64,000 nucleotides of DNA from Nanobdellota archaeon (GTDB taxonomy: Archaea > Aenigmatarchaeota > Aenigmatarchaeia > QMZP01). The stretch covers positions 34,055 through 98,054 of the forward strand of contig JBDRJQ010000028.1 of assembly GCA_043814765.1 (NCBI GenBank), in the 5' to 3' direction. This document shows positions 561 through 40,741 of this stretch, in pieces (positions within the stretch are counted from its first letter, which is position 1; each line of letters begins with the position of its first letter). Under the pieces are notes generated by a model. It searched no databases. It was not told where the DNA came from and saw only the letters and a program-made list of their open reading frames with translations. The position numbers and the translations under genes are program-made.

Positions 561-1300
561 TATCTTCTGCCTCCCATCATTGAACCGATTATAGCGCCTG
601 CAGCGACTCCTCCGGCTGCACCGCCTGTTTTTGGCAAGTATTCTGCCAATTTACCTGCTAGCTCATTAACTGGCATGCTCTGAACCCATACGCGCCCAGG
701 ACCTGTTATAGTGGCAAGGAATAATCCTTCTCCTCCCCATATTATGTTTTTAACGCCTTTTACGCGCTCTACATCATAATCCATGCCTTCATCAAACATG
801 GCCAAATTGCCTGTGTCAACCCTTATTTTTTGTCCAGCTTTTAGCTTCATCTCTGTAACTTCTCCGCCAACATTAAAGAAGACTTGTCCAGGACCTTTTA
901 TTTTAACCAATATAAGCCCCTCTCCACCGAGTAACCCAGCTCCTATTCTCTTTGTGAATGTCGCATCAAAAGTAACGCTTTCCTCTGAACATAAGAAGGC
1001 ATCCTTTTGGGCTATTATGGTTTCACCATTCTTCATTTTCATTGGTATTATTTTACCAGGAAACTCAGTGCCAAATCCCATTGTGCCAGGACCTGCTTGC
1101 GGTGTGAAATGAACAAGAAAGAAAGACTCTCCTGCAAACTTTCTTTTCAGGCCTGCGAAAAGTCCGCCTTTGGCTTTGGTCTCCATTTTAACATTATCTG
1201 ACATATAGACGAGTCTTCCAGACTCAGAAACAATAGTTTCATTTTGTGCAAGTTCCACATTCAGCATCTGCATTGTGGTGCCCTGCAAATCGTATTTCAT
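560..1300 (-). CDS. AIM24 / TIGR00266 family protein
   Basis: GESFF, AQKDAFLC, GGEGL, VDTG and GPGRVWVQSMP motifs. Confidence 0.9.
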   Translation of the reverse strand: MKYDLQGTTMQMLNVELAQNETIVSESGRLVYMSDNVKMETKAKGGLFAGLKRKFAGESFFLVHFTPQAGPGTMGFGTEFPGKIIPMKMKNGETIIAQKDAFLCSEESVTFDATFTKRIGAGLLGGEGLILVKIKGPGQVFFNVGGEVTEMKLKAGQKIRVDTGNLAMFDEGMDYDVERVKGVKNIIWGGEGLFLATITGPGRVWVQSMPVNELAGKLAEYLPKTGGAAGGVAAGAIIGSMMGGRR

Positions 1301-1303
1301 TTG

Positions 1304-1810
1304 CTATCCACCTTCTTCTTTAGGAATTTCAGCTGGTTTTTCTTCTTTGGGTTGAACCTTTTCTAAAGGTTCATTTTCTAAATGCTGCTTTGGAGCAACT
1401 TCAGGTTTTGCCTTGCCCTTGCTTGTGCGTTTTTCTAGCTTATCAAGCTTGAATTTAGGTATGTCTTTTTTGTCTTTGTAAACAAGAACCCTAACCTTTG
1501 ATTCTGCTCTGCCACGATCAGAAAATATCTTCTCTATAAGAATTACATCTTCGTTTATTTTCAAAACCTTTACTATTTCTTTGGTTAAATTAACACGTGT
1601 AGGTGTGGACTGTGAATTATGAGCAACTTGAATGATAAATTCTGTCCTCTTCATTAAAGGATTTTTTCTTTCAGAGACTATATCAAGTTTGTAACCTAAT
1701 TTTGGTCTTGGTTTTTCTTTTTTTACTTCTGCCTTTTCTATCTTAGGAGCCTCTTCAGTAGGTTTTTCCTCTTCAGGTGCTTTCTCTACTTTGGGTTTAT
1801 CGTCTGGCAT
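1304..1810 (-). CDS. rps24e: 30S ribosomal protein S24e with charged N- and C-terminal extensions
   Basis: NPLMKRTE...H...TPTR core; position after rpoE genes. Confidence 0.85.
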   Translation of the reverse strand: MPDDKPKVEKAPEEEKPTEEAPKIEKAEVKKEKPRPKLGYKLDIVSERKNPLMKRTEFIIQVAHNSQSTPTRVNLTKEIVKVLKINEDVILIEKIFSDRGRAESKVRVLVYKDKKDIPKFKLDKLEKRTSKGKAKPEVAPKQHLENEPLEKVQPKEEKPAEIPKEEGG

Positions 1811-1852
1811 AACAAGAATATTGTATAGTGGGTTTTTAAAGGTTAAATTGAT

Positions 1853-2902
1853 CTATTTTCCCTTTACAATTTTTCTCACAGGCCATGATATTTCTATCTT
1901 TTCCTTATCGAAGCGTTTTTTCAGGGCCTTTATGAATTCGTGCGTAATTAGGTATTTCTTTGTGAATTCTTCTACTCGCAGAATTACAGAAAAATCTATA
2001 TTAGAATCTCCAAAATTATTGAATCTTACCATAGGTTCATGGTCTTTTACAGCTCCATCAACTGTTTTTTGCATTTCATTAGCAACTTCCAAAGTTACTT
2101 TCTCTACCTTGTAAAGATCTTCAGTATAAGCAACGCCACATTTTATTATTACAGATGTTGGTTTTGAAGGTAGTGTATTGTTTATTATTGTACTGTCTGC
2201 AAGCTTACCGTTCGGGACTATTATGGAAACATTGCCCATTGTTCTGATTCTGGTGGATCTCCATCCTATCTCTTCAACAAATCCCTTTGTGTTAGCATCA
2301 AGTTCAATGTAGTCTCCTACATTTATTGGCCTGTCAGACACTATGTGAATGCCTGCAAAGAAGTTTGACAACGTATCCTGGAGAGCCAAACCAATTGCTA
2401 TGCCACCAACACCAAGTGCTGCTATTGCTCCTGTGAGATCTGCTCCAAAACGGCCCATTATAACAAACAATGCAACTATGTAAATTATTAAAATAATCAC
2501 CTTGTTTAGGATGTTTGGGGTGTTCTGAACTCCTGTCTTTACATGAAGCCCTTTACCTACAAATATTCTTACTATCCTTGATACAACTAGAGCAATCAAA
2601 AGAATGTAAATTATGTAAAAACTATCAGATATTAATTGCTGGTATGATGAGAAAATACTCAAAATTCCAAGACCCATTTGAAAACCAAACAGTGTTATAG
2701 ATATTAATATTGGCTTTCTAACTGCAGCTATTATCTTGTCATCTATGTCTGTTTTGGTTTTTCCTGTGAGCTTGCTTAGTGTTCTAATAACAGCAAACTG
2801 AACTATCTTAGAACCGATAATTGCTGCTATTAAAATTATAATAAAAGTTAGATACTCTTGACCTATCATGGTTTGTAGGTCTCCTAAGAATTCAAACACC
2901 AT
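1853..2902 (-). CDS. mscS: MscS-family mechanosensitive channel
   Basis: GLALQDTLSNFFAG, GDYIEL, IGWRSTRIR, VPNGKL motifs. Confidence 0.95.
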   Translation of the reverse strand: MVFEFLGDLQTMIGQEYLTFIIILIAAIIGSKIVQFAVIRTLSKLTGKTKTDIDDKIIAAVRKPILISITLFGFQMGLGILSIFSSYQQLISDSFYIIYILLIALVVSRIVRIFVGKGLHVKTGVQNTPNILNKVIILIIYIVALFVIMGRFGADLTGAIAALGVGGIAIGLALQDTLSNFFAGIHIVSDRPINVGDYIELDANTKGFVEEIGWRSTRIRTMGNVSIIVPNGKLADSTIINNTLPSKPTSVIIKCGVAYTEDLYKVEKVTLEVANEMQKTVDGAVKDHEPMVRFNNFGDSNIDFSVILRVEEFTKKYLITHEFIKALKKRFDKEKIEISWPVRKIVKGK

Positions 2903-2906
2903 AATA

Positions 2907-3098
2907 TCACTTCACCCAAATGGAGTATTTTCCTTTATGGGTTATGCCAAGATATTGTGCAACTTCAGAGTTAGCAGGATCCTTTATGAAAATTATACCT
3001 TTCCAGCTTCTGGAAAAGTTTGCCTGATTGCATGTAGGGCATACAGTACCCTTAACAAATCTTTTGCAGTTTCTGCAAACCTTTTCTTTTGTGCTCAT
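2907..3098 (-). CDS. spt4: transcription elongation factor Spt4 (RpoE'')
   Basis: CRNC...CPTC zinc ribbon, WKGIIFI.DP..SEVA. Confidence 0.95.
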   Translation of the reverse strand: MSTKEKVCRNCKRFVKGTVCPTCNQANFSRSWKGIIFIKDPANSEVAQYLGITHKGKYSIWVK

Positions 3099-3099
3099 A

Positions 3100-3699
3100 T
3101 TATTTATCCCCTAACTTTCTTTCAGATTTTCGTCCGCTCTTCATTCTTACTGTTTTTTCTTCATGAACTGTTTTTCTGTCCTTCCAATCAATTCCTCCAA
3201 GTCCCTGTTGCCTTGTTGTTAAACCAATCTTGTATTCCTTTCCTGTACTGGAAACTGATATGATTCTGGCTGTTACAGAATCCCCTTCTTTTAGTATGTT
3301 GTGTGTGTCTCTTCCGATAAAAACAGCTTTTTTTGGATCATATGAAACAAAATCATCCATTAGTTGTGATACGTGTATCATGCCGTCAAGAGGTCCTATT
3401 CTGACAAAAACACCGAATTCTGTTACATCTATTACAAAACCCTTTACTATTTCATGCATGTCTGGTTCGTAAGACAGTAACCTGAAATCCACTGGATAGT
3501 GTATTGCTCCGTCTCCTGCTAGTATCTTTCCTTCACCAACCTCTTTTATTGATACTATGGATAATGCTACGCCAATATCCTTTTCTATTGTGCCTTCCCA
3601 CTTGTCTTCAAGGCTGCTCTTTACAGCGTTTTCTAAACCAAGGCTAAACTTTACAGGCGGTACCCTGACTTTGTCCTTTATAGTTAATATCTTGTACAT
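3100..3699 (-). CDS. rpoE1: RNA polymerase subunit E' (Rpo7)
   Basis: VRVPP, GDGAIH and S1 domain FGVFVRIGPLDGMIHVSQ; start moved to MYKIL, which follows a GAGGT SD. Confidence 0.95.
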   Translation of the reverse strand: MYKILTIKDKVRVPPVKFSLGLENAVKSSLEDKWEGTIEKDIGVALSIVSIKEVGEGKILAGDGAIHYPVDFRLLSYEPDMHEIVKGFVIDVTEFGVFVRIGPLDGMIHVSQLMDDFVSYDPKKAVFIGRDTHNILKEGDSVTARIISVSSTGKEYKIGLTTRQQGLGGIDWKDRKTVHEEKTVRMKSGRKSERKLGDK

Positions 3700-34893: not shown

Positions 34894-37131
34894 ATGATAG
34901 ACATAAAAGAAAGATTATTCACTAGCGAAGTTAAGAAACTTATTCCAATCCTAGGCAGGGTTAATGTTGAAAGACTTAGCAAGGCATACTTGCTTGGTGA
35001 TGAAGATACCAGATTAAGAATCTTCGAATTAATAGACGTAGCTAAGGCTGCTGTTTTCAGCGAAAACGAGCTTGGCGAAAGCATATTAATGGAGCCGCCT
35101 GAAAAAGAAGCTGTAGCTAAAGGAGAATTGACTCTTGGCAGTGTTCTTTATGGAAAGAAAAAAATGTATCCATTGAGATTCGAAAAGCAAAGGCTTTTGA
35201 TGCACATGGGTATATTCGGTTCGTCTGGTTATGGTAAAACAAACCTTGCTCACAAAATGATACTAGAAATGGCAAACGAGGAATTGCCTATATTGATATT
35301 TGATTTCTCAAAGAGAAATTACAGAAAGCTATTAAGAACACCACTAAAGGACAGAATAGATATTTACACCGTGGGCAGAAACACATCACCATTCAAATTC
35401 AATCCGCTTGTTCCTCCTGAAGGCATTCAAATGTCTCAGTGGATGAAGGAGTTCTCATCTGTATTCGATCATGCTTATTTCCTTATGGGCGGTGGTAGGC
35501 ACATAATTATGAAGGCTTTTGACGGAGCTTTCGATGAGTCTGAAAAAACACCAAGATTGAGGGACCTTAAGGATTGGATAAACGAATACGCAGAACTCAA
35601 ACTGCCAATGAGAGAGAAGAACTGGATAGCAACAGCTGCAAGGCCGTTGGATTCTCTAGTCTTCAGGGAAATTGGAGAGATATTTGATTGTGATGTTGGT
35701 GTAAGGCCGTCTGATTTTTTCAAGAAAGGCAAGATAACTATTCTTGAACTGGATGCTCTTGACACTAATGACAAGACATTTTTCATAGAAATACTGTTAC
35801 AGTGGATAAGAGATTGGCTTTTGGTAAACGATAAAAGAGAAGAGCTTATAGGAGCCATTATTTTAGAGGAAGCGCACCATGTTCTGAACCGTGAAAAATC
35901 TATAAGAACTGGTTCAGAAACTGTTATGGATCTTTTGTTCAGAGAGATTAGAGAGCTAGGTCTAGGCATTATTTACTTGGATCAGCACCCATCTTTAGTT
36001 TCTTATCCGGCTCTGGGTAATACATCTACTCATATTTATATGAATCTGGGACTTGATACAAAGCAGTCTTCAGATATACTAGATGCAACTCACATGCTTG
36101 GATTAGATTATGAAGAGGAAGGCAGCTATCTCAGAAGGCTTCCTGTAGGACAAGGCTTTATGCTTTGCAGAAACTTCGAATTCCCAAGACCATTCCTTGT
36201 AAACTTCGATGAAGTGAAATTCACTGAAAAGGTAATAAAGGATGAAGAAGTAGCAGAACTGATGAAAACATACGACAAGATTGTATCCAAACCAGTAGAA
36301 CATAAAGTTGCAGAAAACATACCCAAAGAAGTAGTTAAGAAAACAAATGAAATAACAAGCGATATACAAAAAGCTGCTAATGATCTTTTACGGGAAATAA
36401 AGCTGCTTACAGAAGAGTCTAGGGAATATGCTAAAGAAGAGTATATGGAAGACGCTAAAGAAGATGTAGTTGAGGAACCTGAAGAAAGAACAGAAATTAT
36501 AGAACCTAAAATAGAAACACCAAAATTAGAAGACGTTAGCACAGTGGATATGCCCTTAGATAAGATAGACAAACAGGCATGGAAAATAATTGATGTTGTT
36601 GGTAACGGTCATGGTGCATTTGCATCACAGATATACAAAAACGCCAGAGTATCTGGCACTGTTTTCAATGAAAAAATAGAGACACTTTTAGACCTGGGCT
36701 TAATTAAGCGTGTTGGTGGCAAAAGTGGCAAGAACAAGCTTCATTTTTATTACTTGACTGAAAAGGGAGAAAGGACATTTGATAGCAACTTCAGAAGATA
36801 TGAAGGTGCTGTGGATGCTGACCTTTCAGGATTGCTAGAGCTGTTCTCTTTAGTCGGATGGAAAGCTACTCGTAAAGTAGACATTCTGGAAATAACCAAA
36901 GAGGATGAGATACTTCCAGTTGCAATTATAGATTACACAGACAAAAATAAAATGTACGAAAGACTAAAGATAAACAAACATTTTGTATGCGCAAACGAGA
37001 CGCTAAAAAACATATTGGTGCAACAGGCAGCCAAGCGTTCATTAAAGAAACCAGGATTAACAATATTCGTTTCTACATTCAAGGATTTTGAAGATAACAC
37101 AAAATTCGACAAAATAGAGTTCGATATTTGA
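34894..37131 (+). CDS. HerA/VirB4/FtsK-superfamily (DUF87-like) ATPase with C-terminal winged helix
   Basis: H.GIFGSSGYGKT Walker A, IFD, FNPL, ILEEAHH Walker B, REIRELG, DQHPS; C-terminal LLDLGLI...YYLTEKG. Confidence 0.85.
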   Translation: MIDIKERLFTSEVKKLIPILGRVNVERLSKAYLLGDEDTRLRIFELIDVAKAAVFSENELGESILMEPPEKEAVAKGELTLGSVLYGKKKMYPLRFEKQRLLMHMGIFGSSGYGKTNLAHKMILEMANEELPILIFDFSKRNYRKLLRTPLKDRIDIYTVGRNTSPFKFNPLVPPEGIQMSQWMKEFSSVFDHAYFLMGGGRHIIMKAFDGAFDESEKTPRLRDLKDWINEYAELKLPMREKNWIATAARPLDSLVFREIGEIFDCDVGVRPSDFFKKGKITILELDALDTNDKTFFIEILLQWIRDWLLVNDKREELIGAIILEEAHHVLNREKSIRTGSETVMDLLFREIRELGLGIIYLDQHPSLVSYPALGNTSTHIYMNLGLDTKQSSDILDATHMLGLDYEEEGSYLRRLPVGQGFMLCRNFEFPRPFLVNFDEVKFTEKVIKDEEVAELMKTYDKIVSKPVEHKVAENIPKEVVKKTNEITSDIQKAANDLLREIKLLTEESREYAKEEYMEDAKEDVVEEPEERTEIIEPKIETPKLEDVSTVDMPLDKIDKQAWKIIDVVGNGHGAFASQIYKNARVSGTVFNEKIETLLDLGLIKRVGGKSGKNKLHFYYLTEKGERTFDSNFRRYEGAVDADLSGLLELFSLVGWKATRKVDILEITKEDEILPVAIIDYTDKNKMYERLKINKHFVCANETLKNILVQQAAKRSLKKPGLTIFVSTFKDFEDNTKFDKIEFDI

Positions 37132-37189
37132 GCTCAAACACAACATGTTGTGGATTAATTTTAAATAAGTTAGTGGATAAAGTATAACT

Positions 37190-38630
37190 ATCACAATAAG
37201 TATCATAATCTCAATTCACTAATTTGACTTGCAAAGTCCTTCGCATTAGCTCAACACTAACGCGTCGAATTTAAAAAGAATGTTTTCCCATTAGCATCTC
37301 GCTAGTGGATAGGATATGCAACATTTCATAAGTGTTGGGTATCCTTTTTCTTGACGACTTCTCAGCGTTAAGCTGATCAGCAGCTAGAAATAGCTGCTAT
37401 TTTTTTGACGACTACCGATTTCTAGAAGACCGTCCAACATGAATTCTACGCACAGCACTCTACAAATTCAGGGTGCAGGTGTATGAGAGACAGTCTATAT
37501 GACTAGGCTTGAAATAGGTCTCTCGCTGAATGCAACTCTTTGATGGTAATTCTAGATAACCTGATAGGAGGAGAGACCTGTTTTTGAAAGTAAGCGTCAG
37601 TTTCTGTAACGGATTCTGACGATGGTTATAAAAACAGGGCTTTCACTTCGGTGTTAGCCCTACGAAAACAATCAGCAGCTTGTCTGCGCTTTCATTTAGC
37701 GGTTTCAAGTTCGGAAATCAACATCCGAACCGTTAAGATGTCACAGGTGCGCTTACATATTAGCGCGCCTGTTTTTTGAGAATACGGAACTTGGGGAAAC
37801 CCTGGATCCTTTTCTACCAAGAGGAAGAGAGCCACAATTGAAGATTCGGCCTTACTAAAAGCTGGGCCAACCCCTTCATAAAGGATTGAACCTCTTGGTT
37901 TTTTGAAAACAATGCAAAGCCGGATCATAAAAACTGTCCAATGATCCGGCAGCTTAAATAATGGACAGGCAAGATCCACAATACATTCGAATCGCGGTTC
38001 AAACCACAATTTCGGTTTCGGGCGCTTGTAATCACAGCACGACAGAAGAGTTCTTATTTAATGAACTCACATCGTTTCTCCACTCATCTGCAAGTAATTC
38101 TTCGTCCTGCAGCAGTCTCCTTCCACCTTTCCTTCCGTAACGCCTCCACCGATTCTAGTTTACGGCACAATATCTTCTGGCACAGTATCTTCTGGGATTG
38201 TATAAAACGAAGTAACAATTTCCCAGATTGATACAAATTTAAACGCGTCTCTCTTCCCCCCGTAAAAAGGGAAAGTGCCCGACTCCTTCCGCGACTCGGG
38301 CACTTTTTTTTGTCCAGCTCATGACTACCGAAAGCAAGGATCGATGATTTAAACATTTACCTGAAACAGCGTGTAATCGGCACGCATACTCCAGGAATCA
38401 ACAGATAGATGAGGAGGCCCGAAAAACAAATTAATAATCGCACGAAAGTTGTATTGGTTTTTCAAAAACCTATTCGGTAAAATCATTGCACAGCCAACAA
38501 GCGGTGCAAAATTAACTCAAAAAAGAGAACGGCACTTTGAGGTAAATGAGACATTATTGAATTTAAGCGACACCGAAAAGAGCCAATCTTAAACGCAGAA
38601 GCGATGATCAAACCATCCTTCTGCTTCTTT
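37190..38630 (+). ncRNA. putative large structured non-coding RNA or tandem sRNA array (boundaries approximate)
   Basis: No credible ORF; more than 20 stems, mostly with plus-strand G-U pairs, cUUCGg and GAAA tetraloops, a pseudoknot; TTTAAATA near 37160. Confidence 0.65.
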
Positions 38631-38690
38631 ACATATATCTACTAAAAGGGATATAAGCAATAATCTGCAAACATGCTTCAAACAAAAAAA

Positions 38691-38996
38691 TTACTTCTTT
38701 TTGATGTACTTCTTGAACCATTTAAGAATTGTCCAGCGAGAAACCTTGATCCCGTGCCTGTGTTTCATCTCCTGCTGCACCTCGGACAGAGAGAGGCCTT
38801 TACTGTAGAGAGCTACAGCTTTCATTATTGTATCTTTTTTGAACCTCATCCGCAGGAAATTGTCGTTTGGGGTATACTTGCGTCCGCACTTTTTACAGAG
38901 CCGAAGGTGCTTTTTAGTTGACTCGTTATACCTAAAACCTCTCCACACAGTGTTTGTGCTCTGGCAATGCGCACATCTCTCAATTTTATCTTTCAT
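38691..38996 (-). CDS. InsA/IS1- or IS6-N-terminus-like zinc ribbon + HTH protein, no transposase domain
   Basis: CAHC...G....CKKCGRKYT, then LYSKGLSLSEV...HGIKVSRWTILKW; TATA about 25 nt upstream. Confidence 0.75.
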   Translation of the reverse strand: MKDKIERCAHCQSTNTVWRGFRYNESTKKHLRLCKKCGRKYTPNDNFLRMRFKKDTIMKAVALYSKGLSLSEVQQEMKHRHGIKVSRWTILKWFKKYIKKK

Positions 38997-39034
38997 ACTT
39001 AATTAAACTTATAGGGATATATAAAGCTTTCTCT

Positions 39035-40741
39035 CTACATCTTCTCAGGTGCCTCTATACCCAACAGAAATAAAGCGTTCTTAATGGTAATTTTTGCTGC
39101 TTTGACCAGAGCCAAACGCACTTCAGCAGTATTTTTGTCAGCTTTCAGTACGGGAAGCGCCTGATAAAACTCGTTAAAGGCTGATGCCAGCTCATAGACA
39201 TAGTTCACTATGTAATGGGGTCTGTAGTCCCTTGCAGAATTCTCAATTGTCTGGGAAAAGTTAGAAATTATTTTTATAAGCCTTTTTTCCTTGTCGTCAA
39301 CTAATAGGGATGCATCAAATTCTATTGGTTTTGTTTTTGCCTTTCTCAAAATAGAAGATGCCCTGGCATAAGTGTACTGCACATAAGGCGCACTGTTGCC
39401 CTGAAAATCCAGTGCCTGATCCCAGTCAAATATTATAACCTTTTCAGGTGACTGCATTATCATGCTGTACTTTATTGCGCCCATTGCAACCTGCTCAGCT
39501 ATTTTCTTGTGTTCTGCTGCAGAAAGAGCTGGGTTCTTTTCTTTAGTTGCTTGCAGCGCTATAGCGTACAGCTTTGACTTAAGCTCATGGTAAAGTATAA
39601 CTTTTCCTTCTCTGGACTTCATCTTGCCTGTAGGAAGGTTAACCAGTTCGTAGGATAAATGGCATTCTTTTTTAGCAATCGGATCGCTAATAATCTCCAG
39701 TGTTTTAAAAAACTGCTGAAAGTAAAGTTTTTGCTCAGAACCGACGACATGAATTATCAAATCTGGATTGTATTCTTTGTTTTGAAGCCTTGCCAGAGCA
39801 AATTCTTTTGTTGAATAAAGGGCTATTCCATCCTTTCTCAGCACTAAGAATATGCCCAGACCGTATTCTTTAAGATCTATTATCAAAGCACCATCGCTTA
39901 TTTTGAATACCCCCTTTTTATGCAAATCCTCTACTATTTTTCTTCCTGGTGCTTCAACTTCTGATTCCATGTAAAGCCTGTCAAACTTTGCTCCAAAATC
40001 CTTGTAAATATCATCAAAATAATCAAGGCTCCATTTCCTTCCTGTTTTCCATATAGAAACCAGTTCTTTATCGCCAGCGTACAGTTTTTTATTTATCTCA
40101 TCAATCTCTTCAGTGACTTTTTGATTTAGGCTTGCCTTTTCACTGGATTCTTTGTAAACATCGCCAAGCCACAAACCTTTATGAACATTTTTTGGTGGTT
40201 TCTTTTTATAGATATTTATCAAACCCCACAGAGCTTTTGCTACATGCGGGCCTATATCACCTTGATAATTTGCCCTCACTGTTTTATGGCCTGAAAACTC
40301 CAGGACACGCGACAGGGATTCACCAAGGGCTATGTTTCTAACATGACCTATATGAAATCCTTTGAATGGGTTTGGATGGGCATACTCCACCATTATTGTC
40401 TTTCCTTTACCGTCAACAGAACTTCCATATTCTTTTCCTTCCCTTAACACATCTTTCAGAACCATATCGCTGAATTTTTCTGAGTCAGCATAGAAGTTTA
40501 TGTAAGGGCCAACAGCTCTTACCTCGCGCAACAGACCTTTTGGTTTTACTTTGGATGCGATCTGTCTTGCTATGTCTGCTGGACTTTTCTTGAATTTTTT
40601 TGCAAAAGCAAAACATGGTAACGCAAAGTCTGCACCGATGTTTTCAGGTGGCTTTTCTAAAAATTCTTCTATCTGTTTTTTTGGAAGATGTTTTTTCAAA
40701 AGCATTGTAACTTCGTCACGGATTTTTTTGTTAACATCCAT
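39035..40741 (-). CDS. argS: arginine--tRNA ligase
   Basis: PNPFKGFHIGH (HIGH), KMKSREG, GNSAPYVQYTYARA, LGIEAPEKM. Confidence 0.97.
   Translation of the reverse strand: MDVNKKIRDEVTMLLKKHLPKKQIEEFLEKPPENIGADFALPCFAFAKKFKKSPADIARQIASKVKPKGLLREVRAVGPYINFYADSEKFSDMVLKDVLREGKEYGSSVDGKGKTIMVEYAHPNPFKGFHIGHVRNIALGESLSRVLEFSGHKTVRANYQGDIGPHVAKALWGLINIYKKKPPKNVHKGLWLGDVYKESSEKASLNQKVTEEIDEINKKLYAGDKELVSIWKTGRKWSLDYFDDIYKDFGAKFDRLYMESEVEAPGRKIVEDLHKKGVFKISDGALIIDLKEYGLGIFLVLRKDGIALYSTKEFALARLQNKEYNPDLIIHVVGSEQKLYFQQFFKTLEIISDPIAKKECHLSYELVNLPTGKMKSREGKVILYHELKSKLYAIALQATKEKNPALSAAEHKKIAEQVAMGAIKYSMIMQSPEKVIIFDWDQALDFQGNSAPYVQYTYARASSILRKAKTKPIEFDASLLVDDKEKRLIKIISNFSQTIENSARDYRPHYIVNYVYELASAFNEFYQALPVLKADKNTAEVRLALVKAAKITIKNALFLLGIEAPEKM

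Follow-up and report, generated by a model that had tools for sequence, protein, structure and literature searches.

The window analysed here, a stretch of 64,000 nucleotides, corresponds to G000:C28:34055-98054 in an assembly (G000) of 859 kb in 39 contigs that is 88% complete; its rRNA is archaeal, and the small genome together with the archaeal informational genes fits a DPANN archaeon. Unless a contig is named, positions are those of the window. A gap at 37132-38690 separates convergent genes, namely that of a HerA/FtsK-like ATPase on the plus strand from those of a Zn-ribbon/HTH protein and arginyl-tRNA synthetase (ArgRS) on the minus strand (Table 1). In its sequence the Zn-ribbon/HTH protein is similar to the DNA-binding N-terminus of IS6/IS1 transposases (NF033587, E 3.5e-10; NF033558, E 1.4e-5), and the family profile search found no catalytic domain in it. 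The gap is single-copy, matching only itself in the G000 genome, and its region has a higher G+C content than its flanks. In compact DPANN genomes 1.5 kb without a gene are costly.

Table 1. Genes and sequence elements in and around the gap, listed along the plus strand. Energies are in kcal/mol.
Feature	Position	Strand	Evidence or remark
HerA/FtsK-like ATPase with winged helix, 745 aa	ends at 37131	plus	5′ neighbour of the gap
TATA-box-like element TTTTAAATAA	37159-37168	plus	27 nt after the HerA-like stop; putative transcription start ~37190-37195
Hairpin H1, CCATTAGC / GCTAGTGG	37288-37308	plus	-10.0 (plus) vs -6.1 (minus)
Module 1: 15-pair hairpin, then T5 (37345)	37311-37349	plus	-16.8 (plus) vs -9.1 (minus); hairpin+T-run detector
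Module 2: 8-bp hairpin with GAAA loop, then A+T7 (37400)	37379-37406	plus	-11.6; detector
Hairpin H4	37455-37476	plus	-8.2 (plus) vs -5.4 (minus)
Module 3: long hairpin 37512-37580, then T5 (37581-37585)	37484-37585	plus	-26.2 (plus) vs -17.1 (minus)
Hairpin H6	37595-37621	plus	isolated-hairpin folding
Hairpin H7, cUUCGg loop	37636-37661	plus	on the minus strand a T5 comes after it (A-run 37630)
Hairpin H8, 7 bp	37709-37730	plus	-8.4 (plus), -9.3 (minus)
Module 4: 11-bp perfect hairpin, 7 G-C pairs, then T6 (37772)	37743-37777	plus	-19.8; detector
Weak GAAA hairpin	37791-37805	plus	-4.7
Module 5: 84-nt branched hairpin 37816-37899, then T6 (37899)	to 37904	plus	-26.7 (plus), -31.5 (minus)
Hairpin H12, 10 bp, perfect; last element of the dense block	37919-37950	no strand preference	-15.3 vs -16.0
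Spacer, not structured on the plus strand	37961-38271	no strand	z+ about 0; better fold on minus
Module 6: bidirectional terminator-like hairpin 38272-38306, T8 (38304) on plus, T5 on minus	38264-38311	both	detector on both strands; -18.3 (plus), -22.0 (minus)
Hairpin 38595-38624, then promoter/operator-like motif ACTAAAAGGGATATAAGCAATAAT	38595-38662	plus	outside the structured block
T7 directly after the Zn-ribbon/HTH stop codon (A-run 38684, length 7)	38684-38690	minus	putative terminator of the convergent ArgRS/Zn-ribbon unit
Zn-ribbon/HTH protein, 101 aa	38691-38996	minus	3′ neighbour of the gap
Arginyl-tRNA synthetase (ArgRS)	39035-40741	minus	beyond the Zn-ribbon/HTH gene

A first-pass annotation had described most of this gap as a region without a credible ORF, which is borne out. 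The longest ORF with an ATG, GTG or TTG start comprises 105 aa (37692-38009, minus), a second one on the same strand 90 aa, and the longest stop-to-stop frame 121 aa. All ten gap frames are without a match in NCBIfam, Pfam yields nothing better than E 0.048, and the 121-aa frame has no homologue in a large protein collection. A six-frame comparison of the gap with the corresponding gap of the same-genus genome G001, with the downstream regions of 13 relatives and with its own genome returned self matches only, apart from one match of E 0.007 that lies in another non-coding gap. That the region is a decayed protein-coding gene, of which the minus-strand ORFs of 105 aa (121 aa from stop to stop) and 90 aa would be the remains, is barely conceivable in view of these searches, all of which were negative for a protein family or homologue.

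The same annotation could not match the region to rRNA, RNase P, SRP, group I/II introns or CRISPR, and here too the searches agree. With the 4227 covariance models of Rfam 15, which include rRNA, RNase P, SRP, group I/II introns, riboswitches and GOLLD/ROOL/OLE/HEARO, the 64-kb window gives no match at the gathering threshold, and a permissive scan of 36900-39100 gives seven weak matches, all with E of at least 0.17 (best 22.8 bits vs a threshold of 50). The gap is thus non-coding and belongs to no known RNA family, as is supported by both sets of searches. The housekeeping RNAs of G000 are located elsewhere, the LSU rRNA at C29, a partial SSU rRNA at C37, the RNase P RNA at C29:6798-7150 (57.8 bits, E 5e-16; below the cut-off) and the SRP RNA at C32:5910-6184 (133.8 bits). 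Since the latter two RNAs are found there, a divergent RNase P RNA or SRP RNA in the gap is ruled out.

Several further classes were considered and rejected. ARAGORN at default settings finds no tRNA in the window and RF00005 none at E<=10; five relaxed-threshold ARAGORN calls have mismatched stems and lack the T-loop consensus, which excludes a hidden tRNA, intron-bearing ones included. A CRISPR array, taken as at least three near-identical direct repeats of 24-48 nt with regular spacing, is not present, the largest direct-repeat family being two copies of 20 nt with 75% identity. For a box C/D sRNA, in which C (RUGAUGA) and D (CUGA) boxes adjoin a terminal stem and guides measure ~12 nt, there are only chance-level snoRNA matches (E 8-9) outside the structured block; a UGAUG/CUGA pair inside the 37512-37580 hairpin does not, by eye, stand beside a terminal stem in the required register. 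A replication origin is likewise not indicated. There is no Orc1/Cdc6 match among the 47 scanned window genes (20 of them without any family match), no repeated ORB-like boxes are found and the G+C content of the region exceeds that of its flanks. As to an integron attC array, characterised by imperfect R''/L''-L'/R' hairpins with RYYYAAC / GTTRRRY cores and a nearby integrase, two GTTAAG(C/A) words were seen by eye, and the same 47 genes, 20 of which match no family, contain no match to an integrase family.

The comparison with shuffles on both strands, which had been suggested together with the first annotation, separates a part of the gap sharply from its surroundings. Segment 37186-37960 (775 nt) folds at -259.1 kcal/mol on the plus strand (z -13.96) and at -237.7 kcal/mol on the minus strand (z -6.70), and on either strand none of 20 shuffles is as good. 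Along 37240-37960, 120-nt windows have plus-strand z-scores from -1.5 to -5.9, those in the flanking coding regions from -2.4 to +1.5. Among the 22 longest ORF-free gaps of G000 the present one has a mean z+ of -1.84 with 47% of its windows below -2, which only the 23S rRNA stretch equals (-1.87, 40%), the 20 others being weaker. Furthermore, the plus strand of 37280-37960 folds better than the minus strand (-231.1 vs -197.3 kcal/mol), with 21 vs 13 G-U pairs and 0 vs 3 single A·C mismatches. This block is genuinely structured and non-coding, is biased towards the plus strand and stands out as exceptional in the statistics.

Its extent is smaller than had been proposed. Downstream of 37960 the plus-strand windows up to 38560 have z-scores mostly between -0.8 and +1.2, the hairpin 38272-38306 excepted, and the minus strand folds better in both 37961-38320 (-96.5 vs -74.1 kcal/mol) and 38321-38690 (-79.2 vs -70.8 kcal/mol); therefore the structured block measures ~0.7 kb (37240-37960), about half of the ~1.45 kb that had been described as densely structured throughout. 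The description applies to this first half and fails for 37960-38560, where the plus strand, that hairpin apart, folds no better than shuffles, and the plus-strand preference is likewise confined to 37280-37960. The individual stems named in the first-pass annotation fared better, as 14 of the 16 fold at -8 kcal/mol or below as isolated hairpins; the weak ones are 37791-37805 and 38048-38068 (-5.7 kcal/mol).

The mutually exclusive pairings noted earlier, GAGAGAC (37485)/GTCTCTC (37518)/GAGAGACC (37571) and CCTGTTTTT/AAAAACAGG, are indeed present as inverted repeats (I6 and I12), and two conformers of ~37484-37640 are only 4.6 kcal/mol apart (-62.1 vs -57.5). In module 3, GAGAGAC at 37485-37491 is the competitor upstream of the long hairpin, and the module also has an internal loop of symmetric UGAU/UGAU type. 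In the minimum-energy fold most hairpins are nested within long-range helices, such as that of UGUUUUC at ~37281 with GAAAACA at ~37905. The word TTGACGACT stands 3′ of both module 1 and module 2.

A second property of the region is the placement of its T-runs. Segment 37186-38311 contains six plus-strand runs of at least five T, which are the T5 to T8 runs of modules 1 to 6 (Table 1), and all six start directly 3′ of a stable stem. This amounts to 5.3 such runs per kb; for runs of at least six T (n = 4) the density is 3.6 per kb, compared with 0.50 per kb on the sense strand of 312 long genes, where T-runs are no rarer than base composition predicts. The 23S rRNA of G000 has no run of T>=5 in 3153 nt. 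A detector for hairpins with T-runs (at least 8 pairs, at least 4 of them G-C, loop of 3-9 nt, T-run within 2 nt) scores 64 sites among the 6725 T>=5 runs on both strands of the whole 859 kb, i.e. at most 0.95%, and it accepts four of the six runs here (binomial P about 1e-7), while the remaining two stand behind hairpins that are longer and branched and lie outside its scoring. The genome-wide list contains no second cluster of this kind. A separate terminator scan of 36500-39500 gave seven terminator-like sites vs 2.2 +/- 1.6 in shuffles.

The four modules accepted by the detector have the sequence features of a bacterial-type intrinsic terminator, a G+C-rich stem-loop followed within 0-2 nt by at least five U. 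The resemblance to bacterial intrinsic (Rho-independent) and tandem terminators extends to the stems of 8-15 pairs, many of them capped by a GAAA or UUCG loop, to the U5-U8 tracts and to the arrangement of the modules in series with a bidirectional one between convergent genes. Unlike in bacterial tandem terminators, six modules are packed into 1.1 kb free of intervening genes, and such sites are otherwise rare in G000 (64 per 859 kb, both strands). A further difference lies in the archaeal host, whose polymerase needs a U-tract only, the termination signal being U4-U7 tracts with no need for a hairpin (PMC8716108). More than 50% of the transcription units of Methanococcus maripaludis have several termination sites in succession (PMC8716108).

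Polymerase could reach the array in two ways. The TATA-box-like element fits the upstream consensus of G000, TTTAAATA, which is centred about -32 from start codons and by this spacing implies mostly leaderless mRNAs; no ATG follows the element within ~90 nt. An identical 10-mer is found 26 nt after the HerA stop in G001 (vs 27 nt in G000). The proposal of a functional plus-strand RNA from a TATA box near 37160 is consistent with this match and its retention in G001, but a single RNA of ~1.45 kb fits poorly with the six plus-strand T-runs. The other entry would be read-through of the HerA-like gene, a gene that lacks its own T-run in G000. In both G000 and G001 none occurs for ~200 nt after the HerA stop, whereas in G009 and G016 plain T6 or T7 runs come at once after it; the array probably also ends the transcripts of the HerA operon.

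Together these features lead to a tentative reading of 37159 to ~38311 (plus), to which we would give somewhat less than an even chance: a lineage-specific non-coding transcription unit with a ladder of ends at the hairpin+U-tract modules, which would also insulate the convergent ArgRS unit. Polymerase would meet the six modules in turn, each a stable hairpin and then U5-U8, and termination of graded efficiency, as tracts of such length give in archaea, would yield transcripts with a common 5′ end and lengths of ~160, 215, 395, 585, 715 and 1120 nt, the terminal hairpin of each shielding its 3′ end. The battery of modules would halt plus-strand transcription before it could run antisense into the ArgRS / Zn-ribbon-HTH unit, and module 6 (38272-38311) could act in both directions. 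We infer the transcription of the region, the positions of the transcript ends and any trans-acting role of the hairpin RNAs from sequence, and the terminating power of the U-tracts in G000 is assumed from other archaea. The ladder relies on leaky termination because only two of the six modules have, by eye, a TATA-like box ~30 nt upstream. The presence of the hairpins is the feature it explains least well, since archaeal termination does not require them; stabilisation of 3′ ends would be a candidate role.

Archaeal precedents for a ladder are reportedly given by consecutive U-tract termination sites which Dar et al. are said to have found in 2016 to produce 3′-UTR isoforms. The present locus is similar in that U-tracts stand in a row downstream of a gene without a closer T-run, so that a ladder would be expected. 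It differs in its span of ~1.1 kb, far beyond the 3′-UTRs generally known from archaea, in the strong hairpin before each tract and in the conserved TATA box between gene and array.

Six plus-strand T-runs behind stems, the role of U-tracts as the archaeal termination signal and a 23S rRNA free of them make a single ~1.45-kb RNA appear unlikely. A more compact version, one large structured lineage-specific ncRNA of ~0.7-1.1 kb (37190 to 37910 or 38311) in which the U-tracts are paired internally to A-rich segments, would account for the folding energy of the 775-nt segment, for the location of most hairpins inside predicted long-range helices, for the stable GAAA and UUCG loops and for the bistable pairings around 37484-37640. 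Indeed, the predicted long-range helices and near-isoenergetic folds count against the ladder, as does a strand asymmetry that is only moderate and is reversed beyond 37960. A possible analogue in G009 (1.85 kb, few T-runs, strong strand bias) points in the same direction. Nevertheless such an RNA seems quite unlikely: six U5-U8 tracts directly behind stems would be foreign to it, the 23S rRNA having none, and the long-range helices are short, AU-rich and without comparative support. The large structured bacterial and archaeal ncRNAs in Rfam (GOLLD, ROOL, OLE, HEARO, raiA) share with the locus a long ORF-free stretch and a folding energy far beyond that of shuffles, but the locus has neither an Rfam match nor homologues, and internal U-tracts and a string-of-hairpins architecture set it apart; its sequence is not conserved even within the genus, unlike that of known large structured RNAs.

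This lack of conservation was seen in all comparisons. In a nucleotide search of 41 relatives the structured block has no match, and in 371 genomes of the phylum eight short matches have per-genome E-values of 1e-4 to 1e-2, no better than chance given the number of genomes. The downstream regions of 13 relatives give only short chance-level matches with blastn at word size 7 (best E 0.019) and none with nhmmer. A metagenome scan with the HerA-like protein retrieved five loci, of which two are identical to G001 (100% and 99.94% over 1800 nt) and three are too distant or truncated, so that none of them provides an intermediate relative for covariation.

In G001 the same gene is followed by a gap of 1.29 kb whose sequence cannot be aligned to that of G000. 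By eye it contains ~5 units of a hairpin and T5-T8 on the same strand, of which the strict detector scores one; window z-scores reach -4.9 on that strand in the array, -7.45 at a later hairpin and -5.8 on the opposite strand. A hairpin TCCATTAGCAT...GCTATGGA occurs at an offset similar to that of H1, a shared 10-mer of this kind being about what chance predicts, and the word CCATTAGCAT, present in both gaps, is likewise near chance for two stretches of ~1.4 kb and is weak evidence of homology. As judged from sequence, position and kind of array are conserved within the genus despite the unalignable sequence.

Shuffle tests were extended to ten genomes of the family. An extended structured, ORF-poor stretch follows the HerA-like gene in G000, in G009 (mean z+ -1.61), in G019 at L075, ~850-3130 (mean z+ -1.74), and over parts of the gap in G001. 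Intermediate values were obtained for G002 and G008, whereas G043, G017, G044 and G016 lack such structure. A GC-regression survey of 27 loci serves as a screen only, as coding strands show an asymmetry of +/-3 from composition alone; locus L028, structured in that survey, is only moderate with shuffles. The stretch in G009 (1.85 kb, 48-53% G+C, ORF-poor) occupies L025:5992-7852 on the minus strand of its locus. Runs of T>=5 are confined to the middle and the end of this stretch, and the two strands of its final 800 nt differ strongly (-353 vs -270 kcal/mol; 37 vs 11 G-U pairs). It has no Rfam match at either gathering or permissive thresholds and no relative among 47 genomes of the family. 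Two other genera thus have, in the corresponding position, ORF-poor stretches that are unrelated but equally structured, and the locus may therefore encode an RNA that is invisible to sequence-based searches.

Among the relatives the distance from the HerA-like gene to the next gene varies from 0.27 to >4 kb, and the content is unrelated between genera. Rfam at the gathering threshold finds only tRNAs in the loci of 20 relatives, and only in some of them; in different genera the same gap holds differing tRNA genes (Cys, Arg-TCT and one odd), which suggests that the space after the HerA-like gene tends to harbour RNA genes, non-homologous ones. The same variability would suit functionless or selfish DNA, an intergenic hotspot of fast turnover with insertion remnants or DNA-level palindromes whose hairpins are not selected as RNA. 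The neighbouring gene, with its similarity to the N-terminus of IS6/IS1 transposases and its opposite orientations in the two species of the genus, would be in line with this, and the many perfect stems would suit young palindromes. Palindromes, however, predict neither a strand bias nor a link to T-runs, and here the coupling on one strand has a P of about 1e-7 and the plus-strand fold of 37280-37960 combines its 21 G-U pairs with no A·C mismatch. Moreover, the gap is single-copy, has no match in phage and plasmid collections and has a similar array at the same place in G001. This explanation is consequently regarded as rather unlikely. REP/BIME arrays, extragenic palindromes whose REP units are repeated throughout a genome, also form hairpin clusters in the 3′ space between convergent genes, but every hairpin in the present array is unique.

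A more speculative extension, which we consider a long shot, concerns the HerA/FtsK-like ATPase-wHTH gene itself. In several genera it might be followed by a large plus-strand 'string-of-hairpins' RNA (~0.7-1.1 kb in G000 and G001, 1.85 kb in G009, ~2.3 kb in G019) whose place and architecture are kept while the sequence turns over. Such an RNA could evolve fast and serve the DNA motor as a structured partner or as a regulator, a parallel in concept being the packaging RNA of phage phi29 and its ATPase, or it could be a protein or RNA sponge. A DPANN genome with a unique cluster of bacterial-style hairpins and U-tracts would offer a natural test of what hairpins contribute in archaea to 3′-end stability, termination efficiency and insulation.

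The last 0.7 kb of the gap is best read as combining a spacer, a terminator that works in both directions and what is left of a promoter. The spacer 37961-38271 holds a tandem 15-nt repeat (38164-38193) and the hairpin 38191-38227, and downstream of module 6 a single stretch, 38627-38662, is the only one in the gap with a nucleotide match in relatives (36 nt, among 41 relatives); it carries ACTAAAAGGGATATAA. In G000 a partner copy of the motif is located in the 38-nt spacer before the Zn-ribbon/HTH gene. In G001 the hairpin and the motif, with an inverted partner, are situated directly upstream of that gene, whose orientation there is opposite to that in G000. Probably 38595-38662 is what remains of the region that once lay upstream of the Zn-ribbon/HTH gene; in evolution this gene and its proximal promoter would have been inverted, leaving a half-site at 38646-38661. 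The RNase P RNA match in G000 is likewise preceded, at a distance of ~110 nt, by a 16-mer of the 38627-38662 motif.

Downstream of the HerA-like ATPase gene in another genus of the same family (genome G009) lies a stretch of ORF-poor DNA that is a stronger candidate large non-coding RNA than the structured block of the window itself (37240-37960). It is built of long, mostly perfect hairpins strung near-continuously, the final 800 nt fold with an energy of -368.6 kcal/mol (z -8.6), and runs of at least five T are confined to its middle and end. Neither Rfam nor a search of 47 genomes of the family returned a match to this stretch. In a further genus (G019) the ORF-poor DNA following the HerA-like gene folds with a mean z of -1.74, the lowest single windows reaching -8.4. 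It harbors a tRNA-like gene (34.1 bits, Rfam) with a 4-nt anticodon in the ARAGORN reading, as well as three ORFs of 93-127 aa, none of which matched Pfam.

Positions of the ORF-poor stretches and short sequence elements
Feature	Position	Strand	Remarks
ORF-poor stretch, G009	L025:5992-7852 = G009:C24:113001-114851	minus strand of locus	1.85 kb, 48-53% G+C
ORF-poor stretch, G019	L075:850-3130 (G019:C4)		~2.3 kb, 3' of HerA-like gene
TTGACGACT	window 37351-37359 and 37405-37413		direct repeat, 54-nt spacing
GGCACA(A/G)TATCTTCT x2	window 38164-38193		15-nt tandem direct repeat, unstructured spacer
AAGGGATAWAA / TTTATATCCCT	window 38646-38661 and 39008-39028		copies of split palindrome flanking Zn-ribbon/HTH gene
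16-mer ACTAAAAGGGATATAA	G000:C29:6689-6704, outside window		same 16-mer as window 38646-38661

ARAGORN, run with introns allowed on the whole source assembly (G000), called only 27 tRNA genes, several of them dubious; Leu, Lys, Asp, Gln and Pro have no tRNA gene among these calls. Many of the tRNAs in G000 probably either depart from the canonical form or are missing from the assembly.

Within the structured block, TTGACGACT follows each of the first two T-runs. The same word builds palindromes of the form GACGAC...GTCGTC close to the genes for PadR and inositol-phosphate synthase (window 28548 and 31694) and another palindrome adjoining tRNA genes at C35:10942. Its genome count of 11 is in only slight excess over the 6 or so expected from a rough estimate by hand.

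The protein of the convergent Zn-ribbon/HTH gene resembles the N-terminal part of IS6/IS1 transposases, and the orientation of the gene in G000 is opposite to that in the sister species G001. The promoter-operator-like palindrome is split in G000 into two direct copies, one on either side of this gene. Elsewhere in the genome, ACTAAAAGGGATATAA is located ~110 nt upstream of an RNase P RNA match (57.8 bits, under the Rfam cut-off of 84 bits), and in G001 a near-copy lies ahead of a protein-coding gene on contig C81; these sites probably have a promoter type in common. The tandem repeat in the spacer could be a protein-binding site.
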